Shown here one piece after another: positions 753 to 23,808 of a DNA stretch of 26,692 nucleotides. Every line of letters begins with the position of its first letter. Within the stretch, counting starts at the first letter, position 1. This DNA is from a virus. Its lineage: Duplodnaviria; Heunggongvirae; Uroviricota; Caudoviricetes. The DNA is taken from IMG/VR virus record IMGVR_UViG_2740892270_000008; one strand, 5' to 3'. A program made the translations under genes and the position numbers. The notes under the pieces were generated by a model that was not told where the DNA came from, searched no databases, and saw only the letters and a list, made by a program, of their open reading frames with translations.

Positions 753-1298
753 TTAACCCGCTTTTGGTTCTACCGCGTTAGATTTGCGACTTCTCTCAGT
801 TTCTTCCAAAATCTCTCTGACGCGTTCGTCAGACATACCTTCAAGCTGTAATGCAGCTATTCTTTTCCTTCCTTCTAAGCGGATTAGATCTTGATTTTCA
901 GGCTCTAACAACCGAGCTAAGTACTTGGCTCCATTCAGAACCAAATTTTTCGATAGCTGCTCTAAGTCTTTTTCATCAAGTGCGCTGATAATCGTCATAA
1001 TTATCTTCTTGCTTTCATCTTGATTTTCCTTGATCTCACACCGATTCACTTGTGATGCATCACTGAATCCACATAGCCACTCAACACTTACTCCTTCGAT
1101 AGACGCAATCTGAAGGGCGACACTTAAGGATGGCTCAGTGCCACGAGACAGATAATTGTTTAGTGTTGAAAATGAAAGCCCCCAATCTCTTGCTGCAGCT
1201 CTGACGCTGCGGGAGCCAATCAGCCTTTTCAGACGCTCAGCAATGCTTTCTTTTCTACCACCAGGAAAAGAAAGAGATGTTGTTGTTTGCTTGTTCAT
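753..1298 (-). CDS. Mu c-type lysogeny repressor-like protein (HTH DNA-binding)
   Basis: 181-aa leftward ORF at the left end, divergent from ner; HTH-like segment VRAAARDWGLSFSTLNNYLSRG near the N-terminus; SD AGGAAG 8 nt upstream on minus strand; position identical to Mu c. Confidence 0.7.
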   Translation of the reverse strand: MNKQTTTSLSFPGGRKESIAERLKRLIGSRSVRAAARDWGLSFSTLNNYLSRGTEPSLSVALQIASIEGVSVEWLCGFSDASQVNRCEIKENQDESKKIIMTIISALDEKDLEQLSKNLVLNGAKYLARLLEPENQDLIRLEGRKRIAALQLEGMSDERVREILEETERSRKSNAVEPKAG

Positions 1299-1716: not shown

Positions 1717-3804
1717 ATGTTTGCTTCAGTTAAAGAACTGGTTGGATTACCGGGGATGCCGGGAACGGAGCAAGGCGTTCGCTATTCAATCAGGAAGTAT
1801 GCAACCAGCGAAACCAGCAGACGCCGCAAGAAAGGCGCTAAAGGTTTTGAATACAGCATTGACTGTTTACCTGAAGTGACACAGCAGGCATTACGCGAAC
1901 GTTATGCCCTGCAACTGATGACGCAAAAAGCCGATGAATCACCGGCTCCGGTGGTGACAAAGGCCAGACGCTCGTCTGCCGTGGTTGATGCGGTGGAGGC
2001 ATATCGCGGATCACCACAACTGATGGTCGAACGCCTCAATGCCCTGACTGAAAACCAGCGCCAGGTGGCAGACGCACGCATTGCGATCGTCAGTGAGGTG
2101 CTGAAATTCACGCAACAACCCGGTTTCAGCTGCGCTAAAGCTATCCGGTTCCTCGTTAACAGCCTGGCACGATCACAACTGGACGAGCGCATTGTGGCAA
2201 TGGTTGAGACGGCGAACGCCAAAAAGGGAAACAGCCGCGCGTTGAGTGAAATCACGCTGAAACGCTGGATTGCGGCCTTTAACAAGGCACAGAACGCCGC
2301 TGAACGCCTGCTTTTACTGGCACCGGGTAAACGCCAGGAAATAAAAGCCGAAGATATTAACTGGCTGCCCGAATTTCTGGCGCAGTATCGCCAGTCAAAC
2401 GGCCGACCAATGACCGAGGCTTACGAGGATTTTGTTGCTGAATGGCAGCACCGGCACGCTGATGAGCCTTATATGCTCGATATCATGCCCTCTTATGACA
2501 CCATTCGCCGCGCAATGAAGAAACTGCCGGAAGTGGTGAAACAAAAAGGCCGGGTAACTGGCAGTGAATACCGTCAGCTTGAGGGATTCACGCGCCGCGA
2601 CTGGTCCAGAATGCCGGTGAATTATGTCTGGATTGGTGACGGTCACGGCATGAAGCTGAAATGCGCGCACCCGGTTCACGGGCGGCCATTCGCACCGGAA
2701 GTGACCTTTGTTATCGACGGTGGCACGCGCTTTGTGGTGGGCTGGAGCCTTGACCTGGCTGAAAATGTTTTCGCCGTAGCCGGTGCCATACAGCACGGTA
2801 TTCGCCATCATGGCAAACCGTTTCTGTATTACTCGGATAATGGCTCCGGGGAAACCGCCGACGTCCTGGATAAGGAGATTGTGGGGATACTGCCACGACT
2901 GGGGATTAATCACCCGACAGGGATTGCCGGTAATCCGCAGGGACGGGGCATTATCGAACGGCTTAACCGCACATTACCGATGCGCATAGCCCGTAAATAC
3001 CGCACCTATTTCGGGAAAGGAGCAGATCGCGAGACGTTACGTAAAACCAACCGCGATTTACGCTCGGCATTCAGTGCCCTGCAACAGGGCAAACGGCTGA
3101 ACGCCCGGCAGCAGTCAGCGATGCGTGATTTACCGTCCTGGTCTGAACTGATTGATGCCATTCGTGACGGTGTTGAGTGGTACAACAACCGGCCGCACGA
3201 TGAATTACCCATGAAGCCGAACGGTAAACATTACAGCCCGGCGGAGTTCAGAAAAAAACGCCTGGCGGAAGAGGACACGGAAATTGAATGGCTGTCCGAT
3301 GTTGAACTGCGGGATATGTTCCGGCCGATGGTGGAGCGCCCTGTAAGACGCTGTGAAATACGCTGGCTGAATAATATTTACTACGCGCCCGAGCTGCGTG
3401 ACGAGCATGGCCGTAAGGTACTTATCAGCTATGACATTCATGATGCCGAACGAATTACCGTGCGCCGCCCGGATGGCAGCGTGATTTGCGAGGCGGTATG
3501 GGACGGCAATAAACGCGAAGCCTTCCCTGTCAGCGCGGAATACTACAAACAGCAGCAGCGCCTTAAAGGCATGCGTAAACGCGCAGAGGAAAAAATCCGT
3601 GATGCCGAGGATGAGGTTGTCAACGTGCTGGAGCACAAGCCGCAGGAGCCCTGGCTGGAAAACATATACCGCCCTGTGGGTAATACGGTGACCGTTCAGC
3701 AACCGGTCGCTGACGATGAACCTGATGAAGAATACGAGCGTAATTTCCAGCGGGGATTGCAACTGCTCGAAGCGAAATTAAAAGAAAGTGATCCGCTGGC
3801 CTGA
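1717..3804 (+). CDS. Mu A-like DDE transposase
   Basis: 695 aa following ner; DDE core region VWIGDGHGMKLKCAHPVHGRPFAPEVTFVIDGGTRFVVGW and ...YYSDNGSGE...; size and position as MuA. Confidence 0.9.
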   Translation: MFASVKELVGLPGMPGTEQGVRYSIRKYATSETSRRRKKGAKGFEYSIDCLPEVTQQALRERYALQLMTQKADESPAPVVTKARRSSAVVDAVEAYRGSPQLMVERLNALTENQRQVADARIAIVSEVLKFTQQPGFSCAKAIRFLVNSLARSQLDERIVAMVETANAKKGNSRALSEITLKRWIAAFNKAQNAAERLLLLAPGKRQEIKAEDINWLPEFLAQYRQSNGRPMTEAYEDFVAEWQHRHADEPYMLDIMPSYDTIRRAMKKLPEVVKQKGRVTGSEYRQLEGFTRRDWSRMPVNYVWIGDGHGMKLKCAHPVHGRPFAPEVTFVIDGGTRFVVGWSLDLAENVFAVAGAIQHGIRHHGKPFLYYSDNGSGETADVLDKEIVGILPRLGINHPTGIAGNPQGRGIIERLNRTLPMRIARKYRTYFGKGADRETLRKTNRDLRSAFSALQQGKRLNARQQSAMRDLPSWSELIDAIRDGVEWYNNRPHDELPMKPNGKHYSPAEFRKKRLAEEDTEIEWLSDVELRDMFRPMVERPVRRCEIRWLNNIYYAPELRDEHGRKVLISYDIHDAERITVRRPDGSVICEAVWDGNKREAFPVSAEYYKQQQRLKGMRKRAEEKIRDAEDEVVNVLEHKPQEPWLENIYRPVGNTVTVQQPVADDEPDEEYERNFQRGLQLLEAKLKESDPLA

Positions 3805-4646: not shown

Positions 4647-4958
4647 NNNNNNNNNNNNNNNNNNNNNNNNNNNNNNNNNNNNNNNNNNNNNNNNNNNNNN
4701 NNNNNNNNNNNNNNNNNNNNNNNNNNNNNNNNNNNNNNNNNNNNNNNNNNNNNNNNNNNNNNNNNNNNNNNNNNNNNNNNNNNNNNNNNNNNNNNNNNNN
4801 NNNNNNNNNNNNNNNNNNNNNNNNNNNNNNNNNNNNNNNNNNNNNNNNNNNNNNNNNNNNNNNNNNNNNNNNNNNNNNNNNNNNNNNNNNNNNNNNNNNN
4901 NTACAGCGGAATATGCCGTTCTGTTGGTGCGAAACAAGTCAGCTAAATGAGGTGTTAT

Positions 4959-5769: not shown

Positions 5770-6063
5770 ATGAGCAAAGTACGCGTTATTTTTGAATTTA
5801 ATCATGTTTCGCATGACGAAAAGTTGGCAGGCAATGACTGTGTTGAAGTGCATGAAAAGATTGGAGTGGATGTGAAAACAGAACGTGATACGGATAACAG
5901 GCCGACGTCACTCTGTGACGTTTATGCAAGTATTCTCCAGTATCACAGTCCTGCAATTATTCAGTTTCTCTCAGCGGAATTTCAGGCATCTGCACAGTCT
6001 TTTGGAGCGGATGCCATCATTAAACGCCACCGCGTGCATAAAGCATCAGGCACACTGCAATAA
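5770..6063 (+). CDS. Hypothetical small protein, paralog 2 of a tandem pair
   Basis: ATG 5770 gives MSKVRVIFEFNH..., the same MSKV(V/R)(R/V)I(I/F)FE(Y/F) N-terminus as the preceding ORF; track start 5743 is upstream in-frame. Confidence 0.5.
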   Translation: MSKVRVIFEFNHVSHDEKLAGNDCVEVHEKIGVDVKTERDTDNRPTSLCDVYASILQYHSPAIIQFLSAEFQASAQSFGADAIIKRHRVHKASGTLQ

Positions 6064-6074
6064 GGAAAAACAAA

Positions 6075-6605
6075 ATGGCTAAACGCGTTACAAAATTAAA
6101 GGCCGCAGCCGAGGCGGCACCGCAGACCCGGGAAGAAGTCAGCCGTGATATCCGCACCCTGGGAGATATTCAGCGAGAGGCGCTGCGCCTGGAAACGGCG
6201 ATGAATGACGAAGTGGCAGAAATCACCGCCCGTTATACGCCGCAGATTGAAAATCTTAAAAAGCAAATCAAAGTGCTTTTTAAAGGGATTCAGGACTGGT
6301 GCAAAACCAACCGTGATGAGCTGACGAACGGCGGCAAAACCAAAACAGCCAATCTGACCACCGGAACGGTGTCATGGCGGCTGGGAACGCCATCATGCAG
6401 CGTCAGCCGTGATGTGGAAGGTGTGATTGAAATGCTGCGCCGTATGGGGCTTGAGCGTTTCATCCGCACGAAAGAGGAAGTGAACAAGGAAGCCGTCCTG
6501 GCGGAGCCGGATGCTGTGAAAGGCATTGCCGGTATCAAGGTGAATAAAGGCGCTGAAAGTTTTTATGTCGAGCCTTTTGAACAGGACGCCGGACTGAATA
6601 AATAA
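6075..6605 (+). CDS. gam: Gam-like host-nuclease inhibitor (Ku-like dsDNA end-binding protein)
   Basis: 176 aa; MAKR..KLKAAAEAAPQTREEV..DIRTLGDIQREALRLETAMNDEVAEIT...NRDELTNGGKTKTANLTTGTVSWR...ERFIRTKEEVNKEAVL...PFEQDAG matches Mu Gam nearly motif for motif as recalled. Confidence 0.9.
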   Translation: MAKRVTKLKAAAEAAPQTREEVSRDIRTLGDIQREALRLETAMNDEVAEITARYTPQIENLKKQIKVLFKGIQDWCKTNRDELTNGGKTKTANLTTGTVSWRLGTPSCSVSRDVEGVIEMLRRMGLERFIRTKEEVNKEAVLAEPDAVKGIAGIKVNKGAESFYVEPFEQDAGLNK

Positions 6606-6750
6606 CACCGCATTAATCAATTAAATATCACTTCATTTTAATTATGGCGCTCGCGTCAGGGGACTGCTTGCGCCTGAAAACAGAAAATAAGGGTTAAGAA
6701 ATATGAAATACGTTTATATCGTCATTAATAATGTGGTGGGGAAATAAATC

Positions 6751-7284
6751 ATGATTGATGCAAAAGTGCTTGAAGGGGTTAAAAACTGGCTGTGTATTTA
6801 TGGCCGCCTGACCTGCGGTGTACTGGCTGAAAAAATGAATATGCCGCCATCCTCCATGGTTTATTTTCTGCGTGATGCGGTTGATGCAGGCGTGCTGACG
6901 GAATGTAACGGTTTTTATGATATTCCGCGTCCCCGCCCGGTGCAGCCGGTTCGTCGCAAATGCAGCCAGGAATCTGCGGCTGATGATGTTCAGTGGTGCG
7001 GCTTCAGAAAATCCCTGCCATGGATTGAGGGGCATGATATTCCGTCGATGGCGTGGGAATTTGCTCAGGGCGTTCTGACCTGTGAAACCGTTTATGTGGT
7101 GGCTGAAGTTGATGAGCAGGCCATGAAAGAAGGCGTGCCCCAGTTTGTGATGGCGTATATCGACATACGCCTGGGCGTCATTATCTGCGGTTTAAGCGGC
7201 TGGAATATCACTGAACATGTTCTGCGCTACCTGATTGTTGACCGGACAGCAGCGCCTGCCGGGATATCTGCGGAGGTGGCGTAA
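6751..7284 (+). CDS. Hypothetical protein (possible N-terminal winged-helix)
   Basis: 177-aa ORF with SD GGTGGGGA upstream; translationally coupled to next ORF (TAATG). Confidence 0.45.
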   Translation: MIDAKVLEGVKNWLCIYGRLTCGVLAEKMNMPPSSMVYFLRDAVDAGVLTECNGFYDIPRPRPVQPVRRKCSQESAADDVQWCGFRKSLPWIEGHDIPSMAWEFAQGVLTCETVYVVAEVDEQAMKEGVPQFVMAYIDIRLGVIICGLSGWNITEHVLRYLIVDRTAAPAGISAEVA

Positions 7285-7799
7285 TGTTCTTTAAAACATC
7301 AAACCCTTCCGCGCTGGCTGCGTGGCAAAAATACCAGCAGGACTGCCAGAAAGTTAAGGATGAGGCAAAACGCCTTGAGGCCGTGCTGAATGTTGCGTGC
7401 CGGTCGGTATTTGTATCCGGTATCAGTGGATTTTACTTTAAGGGACTGCGTTTTACGGAGGACAAATATCCTTTTCATCGCGACTTATGGCGAAAACCGA
7501 CTGCGTCGAATGGCTGGAGCTGCACACCGCGCACATCACGTATCCCTAAAACCCTGCGTGTTGCCTCTGATGAACTGAACAGTCTGTGGCGTGAATATTC
7601 GCCCGTCACGTATGCCAGAACCGATGCGCTGTTGTTCTGGTTGGGTATTGATTTCTCGGCAATCCTGTTTGGCCCTGTGAAGTGGTTCTGCGTTGACGAT
7701 GTGATTTACCTTCAGTGCGGCGTAAAACCCGCAAAACAGAAAATGACCGAAATACTGTCTGATGAGTTTTATGCTGCTGAAAAGCGAGTCAGGGGGTGA
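7284..7799 (+). CDS. Hypothetical protein
   Basis: 171-aa ORF coupled to upstream ORF; no recognisable motif. Confidence 0.45.
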   Translation: MFFKTSNPSALAAWQKYQQDCQKVKDEAKRLEAVLNVACRSVFVSGISGFYFKGLRFTEDKYPFHRDLWRKPTASNGWSCTPRTSRIPKTLRVASDELNSLWREYSPVTYARTDALLFWLGIDFSAILFGPVKWFCVDDVIYLQCGVKPAKQKMTEILSDEFYAAEKRVRG

Positions 7800-7802
7800 T
7801 GC

Positions 7803-8354
7803 ATGATGAAATTACAACCCATGGGACTAAAAGGTCGCGCCCCCGCTCATGTCCGTCCGTGGACACCTGAAGAAGATGCGCTGCTGATTGCGCTTTATTC
7901 ATCCACCCCGGTTAAGGATATTGCTGCCAGAATAAAAAGAACTGTCTGGGCTGTATATAACCGGACTGGTGTATTGCGCAGTTCATACCCGGAGTTACTG
8001 AAATATAAACACCCAAGATTTACACCTGATGAAGATAAGTTTATTCGAAAAAATGCCAGAACAATGACCTGCCAGCAAATGGGAGAATATCTCGGACGTA
8101 ATAAAGATTCTGTCAGATGTCGGGCAGGAATGATTGGTGCTGGATTAACAAAGTGCGGAGAGTTACGCCCCGGCACGCGCATATCTGATGATGATGTACG
8201 TCTTATACGTGAGCTGCGTGATTCCGATTACCCACGCCGTCTGTCATTCCGGGAAATTGGCGAAAAGTTTGGAATATCTGAACATTCTGCTCACGCAGTT
8301 TATTACCGTCGCCGGACTGCCGAGGACGCTGTATTACGGGAGTTAACGCCATGA
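7803..8354 (+). CDS. Putative DNA-binding protein with three tandem HTH (Myb/SANT-like) repeats
   Basis: 183 aa; three ~45-aa repeats each beginning (T/S)P-(E/D)-ED: WTPEEDALLIALY...IAARIKRTVWAVYNR / FTPDEDKFIRKN...MGEYLGRNKDSVRCR / ISDDDVRLIREL...IGEKFGISEHSAHAVYYRR; SD AGGGGG 6 nt upstream. Confidence 0.55.
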   Translation: MMKLQPMGLKGRAPAHVRPWTPEEDALLIALYSSTPVKDIAARIKRTVWAVYNRTGVLRSSYPELLKYKHPRFTPDEDKFIRKNARTMTCQQMGEYLGRNKDSVRCRAGMIGAGLTKCGELRPGTRISDDDVRLIRELRDSDYPRRLSFREIGEKFGISEHSAHAVYYRRRTAEDAVLRELTP

Positions 8355-8683
8355 TAACGACCTTATTTGTTGAATCAGATGAACCTCTTGTGTGTGCCGC
8401 CGGAATGCCGCTCTGTGGCGGAACGCTGACCGGCGTTTATTTCGGGGATTTGCGCGGTTATCCCTGGCATTCACTGGATGACGCATTTCCGCCTGATATG
8501 GAGGCTGTCGTGCTGATTGTTCAGTATGGTGACCAACAGGAACTGCGCATCGGCCATATGGGGTATGAAGGCTTTTTTATTGATGAAGAAACCGGAGCCT
8601 GCCTTGAAGATGAGGACGGACAGGTGACGCACTGGTGCCATCTTTCGGCCTTGCCGGAATTACAGGGGATACATAATGGATGA
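8351..8683 (+). CDS. Hypothetical protein
   Basis: 110-aa ORF, ATGA-coupled to preceding gene; acidic. Confidence 0.45.
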   Translation: MITTLFVESDEPLVCAAGMPLCGGTLTGVYFGDLRGYPWHSLDDAFPPDMEAVVLIVQYGDQQELRIGHMGYEGFFIDEETGACLEDEDGQVTHWCHLSALPELQGIHNG

Positions 8684-8819
8684 GCAAATTGTTGAATGTC
8701 CCACCTGTGGAAATGAGGACCCGGAGTATCTGAAAGAGTGCCCACATTGTGGTGAGATAAAATGTAACCACTGCGATATGGGCGACGACACTGCATGTAT
8801 AAATTGTGAGGATGAATAA
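8676..8819 (+). CDS. Small zinc-ribbon protein with four CxxC motifs (not in ORF track)
   Basis: Manually translated: MDEQIVECPTCGNEDPEYLKECPHCGEIKCNHCDMGDDTACINCEDE (47 aa); CPTC, CPHC, CNHC, CINC; start overlaps upstream gene end, stop abuts next gene start. Confidence 0.5.
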   Translation: MDEQIVECPTCGNEDPEYLKECPHCGEIKCNHCDMGDDTACINCEDE

Positions 8820-8820
8820 T

Positions 8821-9108
8821 ATGGAAAAAGAAATCAAATTTGCGCCTAAATCTATCGACGAAGAACTGGCTAAAATCGGCATGCTTGAACGTATGCGGGA
8901 CATTATCGAATATGCGATAAAAGAAAATCTTGCAGCCAGAGAAGCCCTTTTGATAATGGAGCGGGAGATTAACCTGATTAAGGATGCTGTATCTCTGGAT
9001 AATAAAATAGCCCGCGAGGAATACGTTCGCCGTAGGCTCGGTGTTGATGGTTCAGCAATTCTTACATCTGAACATTATGCAAAAATTTTTAATCTTTTTC
9101 AGCGGTAA
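8821..9108 (+). CDS. Hypothetical protein, AT-rich moron-like gene
   Basis: ATG 8821 (MEKEIKFAPKS...) with GAGGA upstream; roughly 40% GC versus ~55% in flanking phage genes (eyeball estimate). Confidence 0.5.
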   Translation: MEKEIKFAPKSIDEELAKIGMLERMRDIIEYAIKENLAAREALLIMEREINLIKDAVSLDNKIAREEYVRRRLGVDGSAILTSEHYAKIFNLFQR

Positions 9109-9328
9109 TCCCCATACAGGCCCGGAGATTGTCGAAATGCCAGTCGGTATTAATATATGAGCCATCCTGGATATCTTCTGCATTTTCCGGGGTAGAGTTT
9201 TTTTGAGCGAGATTGATAATATGTATTGCCTCCTCACGGGAAATCAGCCCCTTATCGAACAGGGTTACCATAAGATTTCCAGCCATTGTGAATGCGGCAA
9301 CATCAAGTGCATTTTTTATATCTGACAT
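9089..9328 (-). CDS. Hypothetical protein on the opposite strand (moron-like), convergent with the upstream gene
   Basis: 79-aa minus-strand ORF; start codon at 9326-9328 with AAGGA ~9 nt upstream on minus strand; 3' end overlaps the convergent gene by 20 bp; lower GC. Confidence 0.45.
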   Translation of the reverse strand: MSDIKNALDVAAFTMAGNLMVTLFDKGLISREEAIHIINLAQKNSTPENAEDIQDGSYINTDWHFDNLRACMGITAEKD

Positions 9329-9356
9329 AGATTTTTCCTTTTATGTTAATTGACAT

Positions 9357-9386
9357 GGCGGTGCGGTAACACCGCCCATTTTTTAT
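9357..9386 (+). terminator. Putative intrinsic terminator (GC hairpin plus T-run)
   Basis: GGCGGTG-CGGTAA-CACCGCC perfect 7-bp stem followed by CATTTTTTAT; lies between the minus-strand moron and gemA. Confidence 0.5.
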
Positions 9387-9398
9387 GGAGCCACGATA

Positions 9399-9701
9399 AT
9401 GAATCGCGCTTCCCTGATTACCTTAATACATGTCGCAAAACGCGATCTACAGCTTGACCATGATACCTATACATCCGCGCTGCTGGCAGCCACCGGCAAA
9501 TCCAGTTGCCGTGATATGTCACCCGGTGAGTTATCCCGCGTGCTGGATGTTTTCAAAAAACGCGGTTTTAAAGTGCGTCAGAAGCCGGTTAACCGGGCCT
9601 TAAAACCGGGTACGGTGACCGCCAAAATTCGCGCCATCTGGAAAGTGATGCACCGGCAGGGATTTATCTCTGATGGCGGGGAAACGGCCCTTAACCGCTG
9701 G
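9399..9701 (+). CDS. gemA: GemA-like protein (Mu gp16 family), C-terminus inside N-masked block
   Basis: MNRASLITLIHVAKRDLQLDHDTYTSALLAATGKSSCRDMSPGELSRVLDVFKKRGF matches Mu GemA N-terminus as recalled; runs into mask 9702-9953. Confidence 0.75.
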
Positions 9702-9972
9702 NNNNNNNNNNNNNNNNNNNNNNNNNNNNNNNNNNNNNNNNNNNNNNNNNNNNNNNNNNNNNNNNNNNNNNNNNNNNNNNNNNNNNNNNNNNNNNNNNNN
9801 NNNNNNNNNNNNNNNNNNNNNNNNNNNNNNNNNNNNNNNNNNNNNNNNNNNNNNNNNNNNNNNNNNNNNNNNNNNNNNNNNNNNNNNNNNNNNNNNNNNN
9901 NNNNNNNNNNNNNNNNNNNNNNNNNNNNNNNNNNNNNNNNNNNNNNNNNNNNNATGATGACCGGAGGCGGGT

Positions 9973-10224: not shown

Positions 10225-10405
10225 NNNNNNNNNNNNNNNNNNNNNNNNNNNNNNNNNNNNNNNNNNNNNNNNNNNNNNNNNNNNNNNNNNNNNNNNNNNN
10301 NNNNNNNNNNNNNNNNNNNNNNNNNNNNNNNNNNNNNNNNNNNNNNNNNNNNNNNNNNNNNNNNNNNNNNNNNNNNNNNNNNNNNNNNNNNNNNNNNNNN
10401 NNNNN

Positions 10406-16306: not shown

Positions 16307-16556
16307 NNNNNNNNNNNNNNNNNNNNNNNNNNNNNNNNNNNNNNNNNNNNNNNNNNNNNNNNNNNNNNNNNNNNNNNNNNNNNNNNNNNNNNNNNNNNNN
16401 NNNNNNNNNNNNNNNNNNNNNNNNNNNNNNNNNNNNNNNNNNNNNNNNNNNNNNNNNNNNNNNNNNNNNNNNNNNNNNNNNNNNNNNNNNNNNNNNNNNN
16501 NNNNNNNNNNNNNNNNNNNNNNNNNNNNNNNNNNNNNNNNNNNNNNNNNNNNNNNN

Positions 16557-17910: not shown

Positions 17911-18381
17911 ATGTCATCCATTGATGCAGCTGTCGTTGTTGACGTTACGCGTCTCCAGCGAGTGTTTGCCCGGCTTCAGTTTGTGGGCGGCGGAAAAGAC
18001 CTGGCCCGCNNNNNNNNNNNNNNNNNNNNNNNNNNNNNNNNNNNNNNNNNNNNNNNNNNNNNNNNNNNNNNNNNNNNNNNNNNNNNNNNNNNNNNNNNNN
18101 NNNNNNNNNNNNNNNNNNNNNNNNNNNNNNNNNNNNNNNNNNNNNNNNNNNNNNNNNNNNNNNNNNNNNNNNNNNNNNNNNNNNNNNNNNNNNNNNNNNN
18201 NNNNNNNNNNNNNNNNNNNNNNNNNNNNNNNNNNNNNNNNNNNNNNNNNNNNNNNNNNNGTATGCCACCGGGACCGGCGGCCATTGGCGCACGTCCGTAT
18301 ATGGGCTTTGATCAGGTGGCAGAACAGGAGATCATGGACGAAATCAGAAAACGCTTTAAAAAGGCCACAGAAACGCCGTAA
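17911..18381 (+). CDS. Virion morphogenesis protein G-like (Mu gp31-like); middle masked
   Basis: ORF stays in frame across the 249-nt mask (83 codons), giving 156 aa, which matches the size of Mu G as recalled; SD GGAGG upstream. Confidence 0.6.
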   Translation: MSSIDAAVVVDVTRLQRVFARLQFVGGGKDLARXXXXXXXXXXXXXXXXXXXXXXXXXXXXXXXXXXXXXXXXXXXXXXXXXXXXXXXXXXXXXXXXXXXXXXXXXXXXXXXXXXXXMPPGPAAIGARPYMGFDQVAEQEIMDEIRKRFKKATETP

Positions 18382-22300: not shown

Positions 22301-23808
22301 TGATTAACTTTGATTATATCGGCGATAACAATCGCATTCCGCTGGTACAGATTGAAATCAATAATTCAATGGCCGTGACCGGCACTCCACCACAGCGTCA
22401 GGCGGTACTGTTGTTTGGTCAGGCTGCAATGAAAGACACTACCATTCAGGGGCGCGGTCAGCTTGATGTACCAGTACGTATTACCCGAGCTTCACAAGCA
22501 AGAGAACTCTGGGGGCGAGGTTCCATGATTGCACTGATGGTAGAGGAATTTATCGCCATTAACCCTGACACAGAGTTATATGCCATTGCACAGGGGGCTG
22601 GAACAGGTCAGTCCAGGGCATGCGTGATGAATATCATTGGAACAGCATTGGCAGACGGGGTGTTAAGTGTTTACATCGGCGGTCGCCGTTACCTCCTGCC
22701 CGTCAGTAAGGGGAAAAAAGGTAAAGAGCTTGTGGAAGAGCTGGCTAAGGTCATTAACGCTGACACTGATGCGCCATTCACTGCTATCGCAGCTGAAGTC
22801 AGTGGTGATAATGCTGAAGGACTTAAAGGCAGCATGGGGGTTAACGCCCGCTTTATCGGTGAATGCTCAGCTCATGATTTACGGGTGAACTATTATGACG
22901 GTGAAACTACACCGGCCGGTCTTACGCTGGAGCTCGTCGCGCCAACACAGAAGGCAACAAACCCCGATATCACCCGTAGCGTCTCAGGGATGGGGAATCG
23001 TCAGTACAACTACATCGTCATGCCCTATAAGGATGCGGCAAATCTCAAAATTCTGGCGGATGAACTGCTGAAACGCTGGGGACCGGTAAAAATGTCGGAC
23101 GGTATGGTCTGGATGGCGCATACCGGCACCTTCGGTACGGCAACCAGTTTTGGTGAATCCCGTAATGACTTCCTGTTTACCTGCACTTCTATTCCTAAAG
23201 CACCAGAGCCGGATTATGTCTGGGCTGCCTCCATTTGTGCGGTCTGTGCGCCCTCCCTGTCAACGGATCCGGCCCGACCATTACAGANNNNNNNNNNNNN
23301 NNNNNNNNNNNNNNNNNNNNNNNNNNNNNNNNNNNNNNNNNNNNNNNNNNNNNNNNNNNNNNNNNNNNNNNNNNNNNNNNNNNNNNNNNNNNNNNNNNNN
23401 NNNNNNNNNNNNNNNNNNNNNNNNNNNNNNNNNNNNNNNNNNNNNNNNNNNNNNNNNNNNNNNNNNNNNNNNNNNNNNNNNNNNNNNNNNNNNNNNNNNN
23501 NNNNNNNNNNNNNNNNNNNNNNNNNNNNNNNNNNNNNGCAGCGTTTTCCGCGCCATAAACTGGCTGATGACGGGACGCCCGTTCGTGCCGGTCAGAATAT
23601 CGTGACACCGGAGATCATGAAACTTCAGTTAATTTCGCTGGGGGAAGAATGGGTGGATCTGGGACTGGTCGAAAATCTGGACACCTTTAAAAAGAATCTG
23701 CTCGTGGAGCGCAACACAAAAGACCGTAACCGTCTGGATGTGATGTGTACACCGGATCTGGTTAACCAGTTCCGCTTCATGGCCGCGCAGATCCGTTTCA
23801 TTTTGTGA
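22300..23808 (+). CDS. Contractile tail sheath protein L (middle masked)
   Basis: 502-aa frame continuous across mask 23288-23537; position before tail tube; size near Mu L. Confidence 0.8.
   Translation: MINFDYIGDNNRIPLVQIEINNSMAVTGTPPQRQAVLLFGQAAMKDTTIQGRGQLDVPVRITRASQARELWGRGSMIALMVEEFIAINPDTELYAIAQGAGTGQSRACVMNIIGTALADGVLSVYIGGRRYLLPVSKGKKGKELVEELAKVINADTDAPFTAIAAEVSGDNAEGLKGSMGVNARFIGECSAHDLRVNYYDGETTPAGLTLELVAPTQKATNPDITRSVSGMGNRQYNYIVMPYKDAANLKILADELLKRWGPVKMSDGMVWMAHTGTFGTATSFGESRNDFLFTCTSIPKAPEPDYVWAASICAVCAPSLSTDPARPLQXXXXXXXXXXXXXXXXXXXXXXXXXXXXXXXXXXXXXXXXXXXXXXXXXXXXXXXXXXXXXXXXXXXXXXXXXXXXXXXXXXXXQRFPRHKLADDGTPVRAGQNIVTPEIMKLQLISLGEEWVDLGLVENLDTFKKNLLVERNTKDRNRLDVMCTPDLVNQFRFMAAQIRFIL

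Follow-up and report, generated by a model that had tools for sequence, protein, structure and literature searches.

The gam-gemA block of an Escherichia coli Mu-like prophage: probably a distal early operon of the Mu type with two additional genes

The early transcript of phage Mu consists largely of uncharacterised semi-essential genes (PMC3820752; PMC8705779), and in the reference Mu genome gp11, gp12, gp13, gp14 and gp15 lie between gam (Mup10) and gemA (Mup16), gp15 being on the minus strand. In the Mu-like phages of Pseudomonas aeruginosa, 'regions of genomic plasticity' coincide with lows in guanine-plus-cytosine (GC) content, and some of them carry anti-CRISPR genes (PMC4378225). This work deals with the gam-gemA interval (positions 6606-9398, hereafter the block) of a 26,692-nucleotide stretch of DNA, IMG/VR virus record IMGVR_UViG_2740892270_000008 (hereafter the window). 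A sequence-only reading had presented this interval as seven open reading frames (ORFs) without a match in Mu. From the gam stop (6605) to the gemA start (9399) there are indeed exactly seven ORFs, six on the plus strand and one on the minus strand, but five of them turn out to be syntenic homologues of Mu gp11-gp15.

The order in the window, i.e., gam, gp11, gp12, two further genes (here called o3 and o4), gp13, gp14, a leftward gp15-like gene, a hairpin and gemA, is the order of Mu, orientations included, with two genes added. We put at roughly 0.78 the probability that the block represents the distal part of an early (semi-essential) operon in a Mu-like prophage of E. coli, and not an inserted island. 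Compared with the Mup11-Mup15 region of Mu, the position between gam and gemA, the gene order and the strands are the same, and five genes are homologous (gp15 in its N-terminal domain only). In gene content the differences are the extra o3 and o4 between gp12 and gp13, and the lack in the window of a gp9-family gene upstream of gam. The earlier placement of the block in a semi-essential early region of the Mu type was right. The features are as follows, with lengths in amino acids (aa), expectation values as E, and dN/dS for the ratio of non-synonymous to synonymous divergence.

6075-6605, plus strand: gam, the left flank, encoding a Mu Gam/Ku-like end-binding protein (Pfam Phage_Mu_Gam, E 5.5e-42; 57% identity to Mu Gam).
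6606-6750, plus strand: gam-gp11 spacer, the first variable site, empty here, 36% GC, with an inverted repeat and a mini-ORF.
6751-7284, plus strand: o1, Mu gp11 homologue, 177 aa, 68% identity over the full length, E 9e-83; dN/dS 0.15-0.31.
7284-7799, plus strand: o2, Mu gp12 homologue, 171 aa, 55% identity over 169 aa, E 4e-70.
7803-8354, plus strand: o3, 183 aa, three tandem three-helix helix-turn-helix (HTH) domains, Myb/homeodomain-like; phrog_323, E 5e-53.
8351-8683, plus strand: o4, a 110-aa orphan without Mu counterpart; phrog_6925, E 2e-51; its start overlaps the o3 stop (ATGA); dN/dS 0.12-0.22.
8676-8819, plus strand: o5, Mu gp13 homologue, 47 aa, four CxxC pairs, zinc-ribbon-like; 88% identity over 41 aa, E 2e-27.
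8821-9108, plus strand: o6, Mu gp14 homologue, 95 aa from the ATG at 8821; 49% identity over 94 aa, E 1e-30; phrog_6075, E 5e-44.
9089-9328, minus strand: o7, diverged Mu gp15 homologue, 79 aa, at the same position and on the same strand as Mu gp15; dN/dS 0.23.
9357-9386, plus strand: hairpin GGCGGTG-cggtaa-CACCGCC followed by CATTTTTTAT, about 20 nucleotides (nt) upstream of the gemA start, terminator-like by consensus scan.
9399-9701, the rest masked by N, plus strand: gemA, the right flank (Pfam GemA, E 2.5e-19; 50% identity to Mu GemA).

The chromosome of E. coli strain 600029 contains bases 6000-9700 of the window with 100% identity. In this identical record of a complete chromosome the block lies within a Mu-like prophage, with a repressor, a Ner-like protein, a Mu-type transposase, the MuB ATPase, small early genes and Gam as neighbours, and with GemA (annotated 'gp16 family'), Mor, lysis genes and head genes after the block. 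At an identity of at least 90% the block is carried by 232 of 5426 complete E. coli genomes.

When the early and middle proteins of Mu (c through endolysin) were compared to the window by tblastn, gp13 came first with 88% identity, followed by gp11 (68%), Gam (57%), gp12 (55%), GemA (50%), gp14 and B (49% each) and, well below, the transposase (23%). As gp13 and gp11 head the early proteins in conservation, the genes of the block are not add-ons; these two are the most constrained early proteins across Mu lineages. The gp11 homologue, the first gene after gam, passes the Pfam family Gp11_C (PF25754; E 5.7e-41, 139.2 bits against a cut-off of 27). The gp12 homologue, directly after it, matches phrog_2314 (E 1e-84), and its close homologues carry a precomputed match to PF26885 (Phage_Mu_Gp12); the local Pfam copy being without the PF26885 model, membership of o2 rests on the similarity to Mu gp12, on phrog_2314 and on the matches of these homologues.

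The gp13 homologue keeps all eight cysteines of Mu gp13 (phrog_5584, E 3e-26), in the form of the four CxxC pairs that the sequence-only reading had pointed out, and differs from Mu gp13 by missing its 19 extra N-terminal residues. It stands at 88% identity across all Mu-type phages of the phage collection. The gene is unannotated in the identical RefSeq record and in related RefSeq records, yet it encodes the most conserved protein of the block. A gp13-like protein with four CxxC pairs and 55% identity is also found in a non-Mu phage, Klebsiella phage Kpn BU9 (locus coordinates 3001-3153), where its gene sits between a 264-aa unknown gene and a cluster encoding an exonuclease, a single-strand annealing protein and a DNA polymerase. 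Such a context may connect gp13 with DNA metabolism.

All seven ORFs are, by their substitution patterns, real genes under purifying selection. Calculated by the Nei-Gojobori method against four E. coli relatives and Mu, dN/dS ranges from 0.03 to 0.37 across the seven, the lowest value being that of the gp13 homologue against Mu (0.03), and substitutions are enriched at third codon positions, in o7 as elsewhere. Synonymous divergence (dS) from Mu is saturated (about 1.5-2), so the similarity to Mu is old.

The six rightward ORFs overlap or abut at their stops and starts (7284; 7799/7803; 8351/8354; 8676/8683; 8819/8821), and because of these overlaps they would be expected to be co-transcribed from the early promoter and translationally coupled. 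At the distal end, o6 and the leftward o7 form the convergent pair noticed before, with a 20-nt overlap. The products would be small DNA- or protein-binding factors acting early in the lytic cycle, on transactions of phage or host DNA and on gene expression; the candidates for such factors are gp11 with its Gp11_C domain, o3 with its three HTH domains and gp13, which is zinc-ribbon-like, and the extreme conservation of gp13 suggests a conserved partner.

Base composition follows what the sequence-only reading had described, i.e., more AT-rich DNA from about 7.8 kb onwards. GC content is 47.2% over the whole block, 45.8% at 7800-9398 and 41.8% at 8684-9398, against a mean of 54.6% for phage windows of equal size (standard deviation about 0.04). 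Among windows of equal length all three intervals are the lowest or nearly so, the fraction of windows with an equal or lower value being 0.005-0.017. GC at third codon positions (GC3) is lowered too, to 0.35-0.42 in o3, o5, o6 and o7 against 0.53-0.67 in backbone genes. Mu, however, has an equal dip over gp13-gp15 (0.45-0.47 against 0.52-0.55), which is why the low GC is no sign of a foreign insert; it would rather reflect a pool of exchangeable early genes common to Mu-type phages. These figures were recomputed with the masked parts of the window excluded. There are six runs of N (4647-4901, 9702-9953, 10225-10405, 16307-16556, 18010-18259 and 23288-23537; 181-255 nt each), which interrupt gemA and mor, among other places, and the deep dips seen elsewhere in the window (to about 0.18-0.23) are artefacts of them. 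The masking may not preserve length, since the offset to the identical RefSeq record shifts by 97 nt across the first run.

The least obvious of the five homologies is that of o7 to Mu gp15. BLASTP found no match between the two, a result later overturned by profile and bridging-sequence tests. Mu gp15 matches the family of o7, phrog_32893, with E 5.9e-4 over residues 5-52 (the gp15 family being phrog_8747/phrog_32893), a hidden Markov model of the o7 family aligns gp15 residues 8-38, and the Smith-Waterman score of the pair is reached by just 0.1% of shuffles. Leftward ORFs at the same site in other Mu-like contigs bridge o7 and gp15 through a shared N-terminal motif, DVA[AG][FY]..A..L...L..K..I[ST].EE. 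On these alignments o7 is a diverged gp15, with homology demonstrated no further than about residue 45, the C-terminal halves being unrelated. The gp15-like gene of several relatives shifts after about 43 codons to an alternative minus-strand frame, which is present in the window as a 61-aa ORF (9052-9237), so that the N-terminal domain alone is constant.

In the updated Mu GenBank record AF083977, gp15 is replaced by a rightward ORF, Mu_54. The conservation of a leftward gp15-like gene argues against this replacement; gp15 is a genuine gene family whose defining feature is the conserved N-terminal domain, which backs the original leftward annotation in Mu. The arrangement resembles that of the reverse-oriented 'moron' genes of temperate phages, likewise lone leftward genes in a rightward operon and exchangeable (here gp15-like or DUF2513). 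In contrast to classical morons, the o7 slot is without a flanking promoter-terminator pair, and the nearby hairpin faces the rightward transcript. A literature search on DUF2513 gave nothing relevant.

The hairpin had been taken as the terminator that closes off the block. A hairpin with a T-run is there, but it is not an island boundary. Its stem of 7 bp (9357-9376; six GC pairs) is followed by T6 and then by the gemA Shine-Dalgarno sequence GGAG (9387-9390), and Mu has the same stem at 8193-8212, likewise about 20 nt ahead of the gemA start. From the phage of the window to Mu, the stem GGCGGTG/CACCGCC, a T-rich run and GGAGGTACGAT[AC]ATG (i.e., the gemA Shine-Dalgarno sequence and start codon) are kept. 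The two versions differ in what trails the stem: CCCTTTCC, a poor U-run, in Mu, and T6 in the window. As the hairpin is conserved upstream of gemA in Mu and many relatives, it is part of the gemA leader.

Across 14 distinct versions of the hairpin 98% of the stem positions are paired, with one compensatory change (U-A to C-G), and in a Citrobacter version a G-C pair has become G-U, which pairs only in the rightward (plus-strand) RNA. The motif was found in 29 loci, in 28 of which a leftward ORF lies beside gemA, and it is missing where gemA overlaps a rightward gene. By sequence the hairpin looks like an intrinsic terminator, but terminator-like sites in the region number 5 against 4.5 expected by chance. 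A comparison of both strands of 6000-9700 to Rfam gave no match at E ≤ 1. Hairpin and U-run would act in the rightward transcript, by attenuation or 3' stabilisation just before the gemA ribosome-binding site (RBS), and this is the role we favour; with gemA and mor downstream, the hairpin cannot be a full stop.

The two genes without a counterpart at this place in Mu are o3 and o4. The triple-HTH protein of the sequence-only reading stands: the AlphaFold2 model of o3 (22 homologues) has three three-helix HTH bundles and a C-terminal helix, at a mean predicted local distance difference test (pLDDT) score of 84.6. Mu gp9 (Mup09, formerly E8), like o3 a small early protein of Mu-type phages, also belongs to phrog_323 (E 5e-29), a family labelled 'transcriptional regulator, D5-like'. 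The two proteins are 27% identical in pairwise alignment (E 2e-7), repeats 2 and 3 of o3 aligning with the two HTH repeats of gp9. They differ by the extra N-terminal repeat of o3 and by location, o3 being downstream of gp12 whereas gp9 is upstream of gam.

Compared to the PDB by Foldseek, the o3 model returned weak matches to multi-HTH DNA binders alone (best E 0.06), and a comparison with the viral models of BFVD gave 27 matches at E ≤ 1e-3 (best 2e-6), which with few exceptions belong to uncharacterised tandem-HTH phage proteins or to the DNA-binding portions of homing endonucleases. RefSeq calls o3 'SANT/Myb-like' and its other allele 'AsnC family'; both names are resemblances only, because the underlying Pfam matches stay below their cut-offs: 19.7 against 24.4 bits for PF00249, 16.5 against 22.9 for PF13921, and 18.8 against 27 for an HTH_AsnC-type match of 35 residues. 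The AsnC/Lrp assignment also disagrees with the model, which is all-helical and has no RAM domain. PDB sequence searches for o1, o2, o3, o4 and o7 gave nothing significant.

The o3 family is narrow, with 27 clusters in E. coli and Salmonella. In P2-like Salmonella prophages, relatives with 44% identity (gene at locus coordinates 6001-6564) lie directly upstream of the replication gene gpA and downstream of a Dam-type methyltransferase, and the family is therefore common to transposable and P2-like temperate phages. In E. coli there are two classes of o3 alleles, with about 99% and 72% aa identity to the window, the divergent part (7943-8343) comprising HTH repeats 2 and 3. Between the classes dS is 0.61, about three times the 0.14-0.25 of the flanks, and dN/dS is 0.28. 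The 28% aa divergence, coming as it does with such values, reflects allele replacement by recombination rather than positive selection on o3.

o4 has only 16 matches among 1.8 billion representative proteins, and its resemblance to DUF551 (PF04448) stays below the cut-off (14.6 bits against 22, E 0.062). The two genes do not behave as a mobile two-gene module, as the P2-like relative of o3 is flanked by unrelated genes, its 109-aa neighbour being unlike o4.

The block had further been described as accessory. It is itself Mu backbone, gp11-gp15 and the gemA leader hairpin, with two genes added. The region is mosaic among relatives, at two sites. Relatives retain gam, gp11, gp12, o3 and o4, and vary between o4 and gemA, where at least five alternative gene sets are found, all on the o4-gemA site:

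gp13, gp14 and the gp15-like gene (the set of the window).
A 116-aa gene, a 102-aa gene and a leftward DUF2513 gene.
Genes of 116, 110, 65 and 98 aa.
A single 103-aa gene.
In Salmonella, a dATP/dGTP pyrophosphohydrolase-family gene and three small genes.

The 715-bp cassette of the window occurs in 14 of the 5426 complete E. coli genomes, as compared to the 232 with the backbone of the block. The pyrophosphohydrolase-family gene that follows o4 in Salmonella belongs to PF04447 (formerly DUF550), a domain often fused to the DUF551 that o4 weakly resembles.

The other site is the gam-gp11 spacer, where relatives have a gene of 180-192 aa of phrog_2260 (DUF5420 or a 180-aa paralogue). In the window, a 14-codon mini-ORF (6703-6747) keeps the phrog_2260-type RBS, the start context and the first codons (MKYVYI vs MAYFYF) and then runs into a stop. 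BLAST breakpoints fall at 6678 and 6743. Since the RBS and the first codons alone survive, the spacer is a deletion scar. Its imperfect inverted repeat (GGCGC...GCGCC, 6646-6674) is conserved and present in relatives too. In Salmonella Mu-like relatives Gam itself is replaced once, by a DUF3164 protein.

Both sites recall the plasticity regions of the P. aeruginosa phages, which are likewise fixed sites in the early (left) arm at which collinear genomes swap short accessory ORFs. Those phages are, however, a different group without sequence similarity, and some of their regions carry anti-CRISPR genes, whereas the E. coli cassettes are without identified function. The two exchange sites are sensible places to seek host-interaction genes in enterobacterial Mu-like prophages.

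Several points weigh against the block being an early operon of this kind, or against parts of that interpretation. The regulatory or DNA-transaction role of its products is read from folds alone; the sequence-only reading was right in treating the function of all seven as unassigned, and the same holds in Mu. The model of o4 is all-beta but unreliable (pLDDT 57.5) and too poor for a fold search. Homologues of gp9 (34 loci) and o3 (42 loci) were never both scored in about 90 Mu-like loci (80 from IMG/VR, four from a GemA scan of species-representative genomes and a few reference loci), which suggests that they may be alternative locations of one function, but this non-overlap is limited by the upstream reach of the fetched loci. 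A consensus scan found no promoter for the leftward o7, and no conserved sigma-70 promoter for o7, or for gemA around the hairpin. The hairpin with its T6 resembles an efficient intrinsic terminator, which is awkward given the expression of gemA and mor downstream, and the Mu GenBank record labels the equivalent 67 nt 'semi-early promoter', so that the element could be a promoter region.

What else could the block be? A recently acquired foreign island inserted in the Mu backbone would account for the lowest GC and GC3 of the phage, and for the rarity of the distal 715 bp (14 genomes against 232). This is largely refuted by synteny, as the low-GC genes gp13, gp14 and gp15 are the very ones that Mu has too, in the same order. 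The GC dip also occurs in Mu, the saturated dS speaks for an old similarity, and there is no integrase, transposase or repeat boundary, the junctions being gene boundaries; an island is thus highly improbable. More can be said for a self-contained module of gp14, the gp15-like gene and the hairpin, expressed in the prophage and serving lysogenic conversion, exclusion or a toxin-antitoxin-like function, in which convergent early transcription would silence the leftward gene on induction and the hairpin would either shield that gene from gemA or make up the 5' end of its mRNA. The architecture is kept from lineage to lineage, gp14 having behind it in nearly every case a leftward gene that overlaps it at the 3' end; the slot accepts leftward genes unrelated to each other (gp15-like or DUF2513); the hairpin is almost confined to loci with a leftward ORF (28 of 29) and missing where gemA overlaps a rightward ORF, and the gem operon downstream is constitutively expressed in Mu lysogens, according to reference 71 as cited in PMC3820752. 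The module nevertheless lacks a leftward promoter by consensus scan. Frameshifts replace the C-terminal half of o7 in several relatives, so that only ~45 residues are conserved, and the swap of gp15 for Mu_54 leaves the coding strand disputed in Mu. The G-U stem variant pairs only in the rightward RNA, and PADLOC has no match for gp15, o7 or the DUF2513 gene. We consider such a module rather improbable.

An anti-defence or host-takeover locus, where one or more small early proteins inhibit host defence or repair, is possible, if unlikely, with gp13, o4 and the cassette genes as candidates. By analogy with the semi-essential region of Mu, the genes would be early-expressed and non-essential; the region is mosaic and low in GC, as are the anti-CRISPR-bearing plasticity regions of Pseudomonas (PMC4378225); and the neighbours Gam and GemA are tied to Gabija licensing and sensitivity in a Pseudomonas Mu-like phage (PMC12407980). 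The conservation of gp13 (88%, against 23% for the transposase) is what is expected of a binder of a conserved host target, and the gp13-like protein of Kpn BU9 is encoded within a replication/recombination module. On the other side, PADLOC-DB v2 gave no match for the seven block proteins at E ≤ 0.1, and PADLOC none for ten alternative-cassette proteins at E ≤ 0.01; among the Pfam, NCBIfam and PHROG matches of the block (NCBIfam gave no hits) no anti-defence name appears. There is no sign of an arms race either, with dN/dS at 0.03-0.37 and the high divergence of o3 being allele exchange with high dS and not positive selection. Nothing joins the seven genes into one system, and there is no evidence for a multi-gene system in the block, contrary to the undescribed system suggested earlier. 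Narrower versions of these ideas, i.e., that the exchangeable leftward gene converging on gp14 and the gemA-leader hairpin form an undescribed prophage-expressed module, which convergent early transcription turns off at induction and which sets gemA/mor expression, or that gp13 inhibits, so far unrecognised, some conserved protein of host DNA repair or defence, are a long shot. The distal early operon of the Mu type remains our preferred reading, and it removes a false lead: the block is better annotated as homologues of Mu gp11-gp15, a gp9-family HTH protein and one orphan than as a novel island.

As to the surroundings, the prophage is inserted in an SgrR-family regulator gene (window position 1 to about 506), which the identical record annotates as a truncated pseudogene. 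On the left the phage ends (about 507-752) between this remnant and the gene of the repressor (753-1298, minus strand, 39-43% GC). The nearest matches in the phage collection, LC727895.1 and LC727881.1, are copies of this very Mu-like phage, a transposable phage nested inside Stx1a- and Stx2c-converting (Shiga-toxin) prophages.

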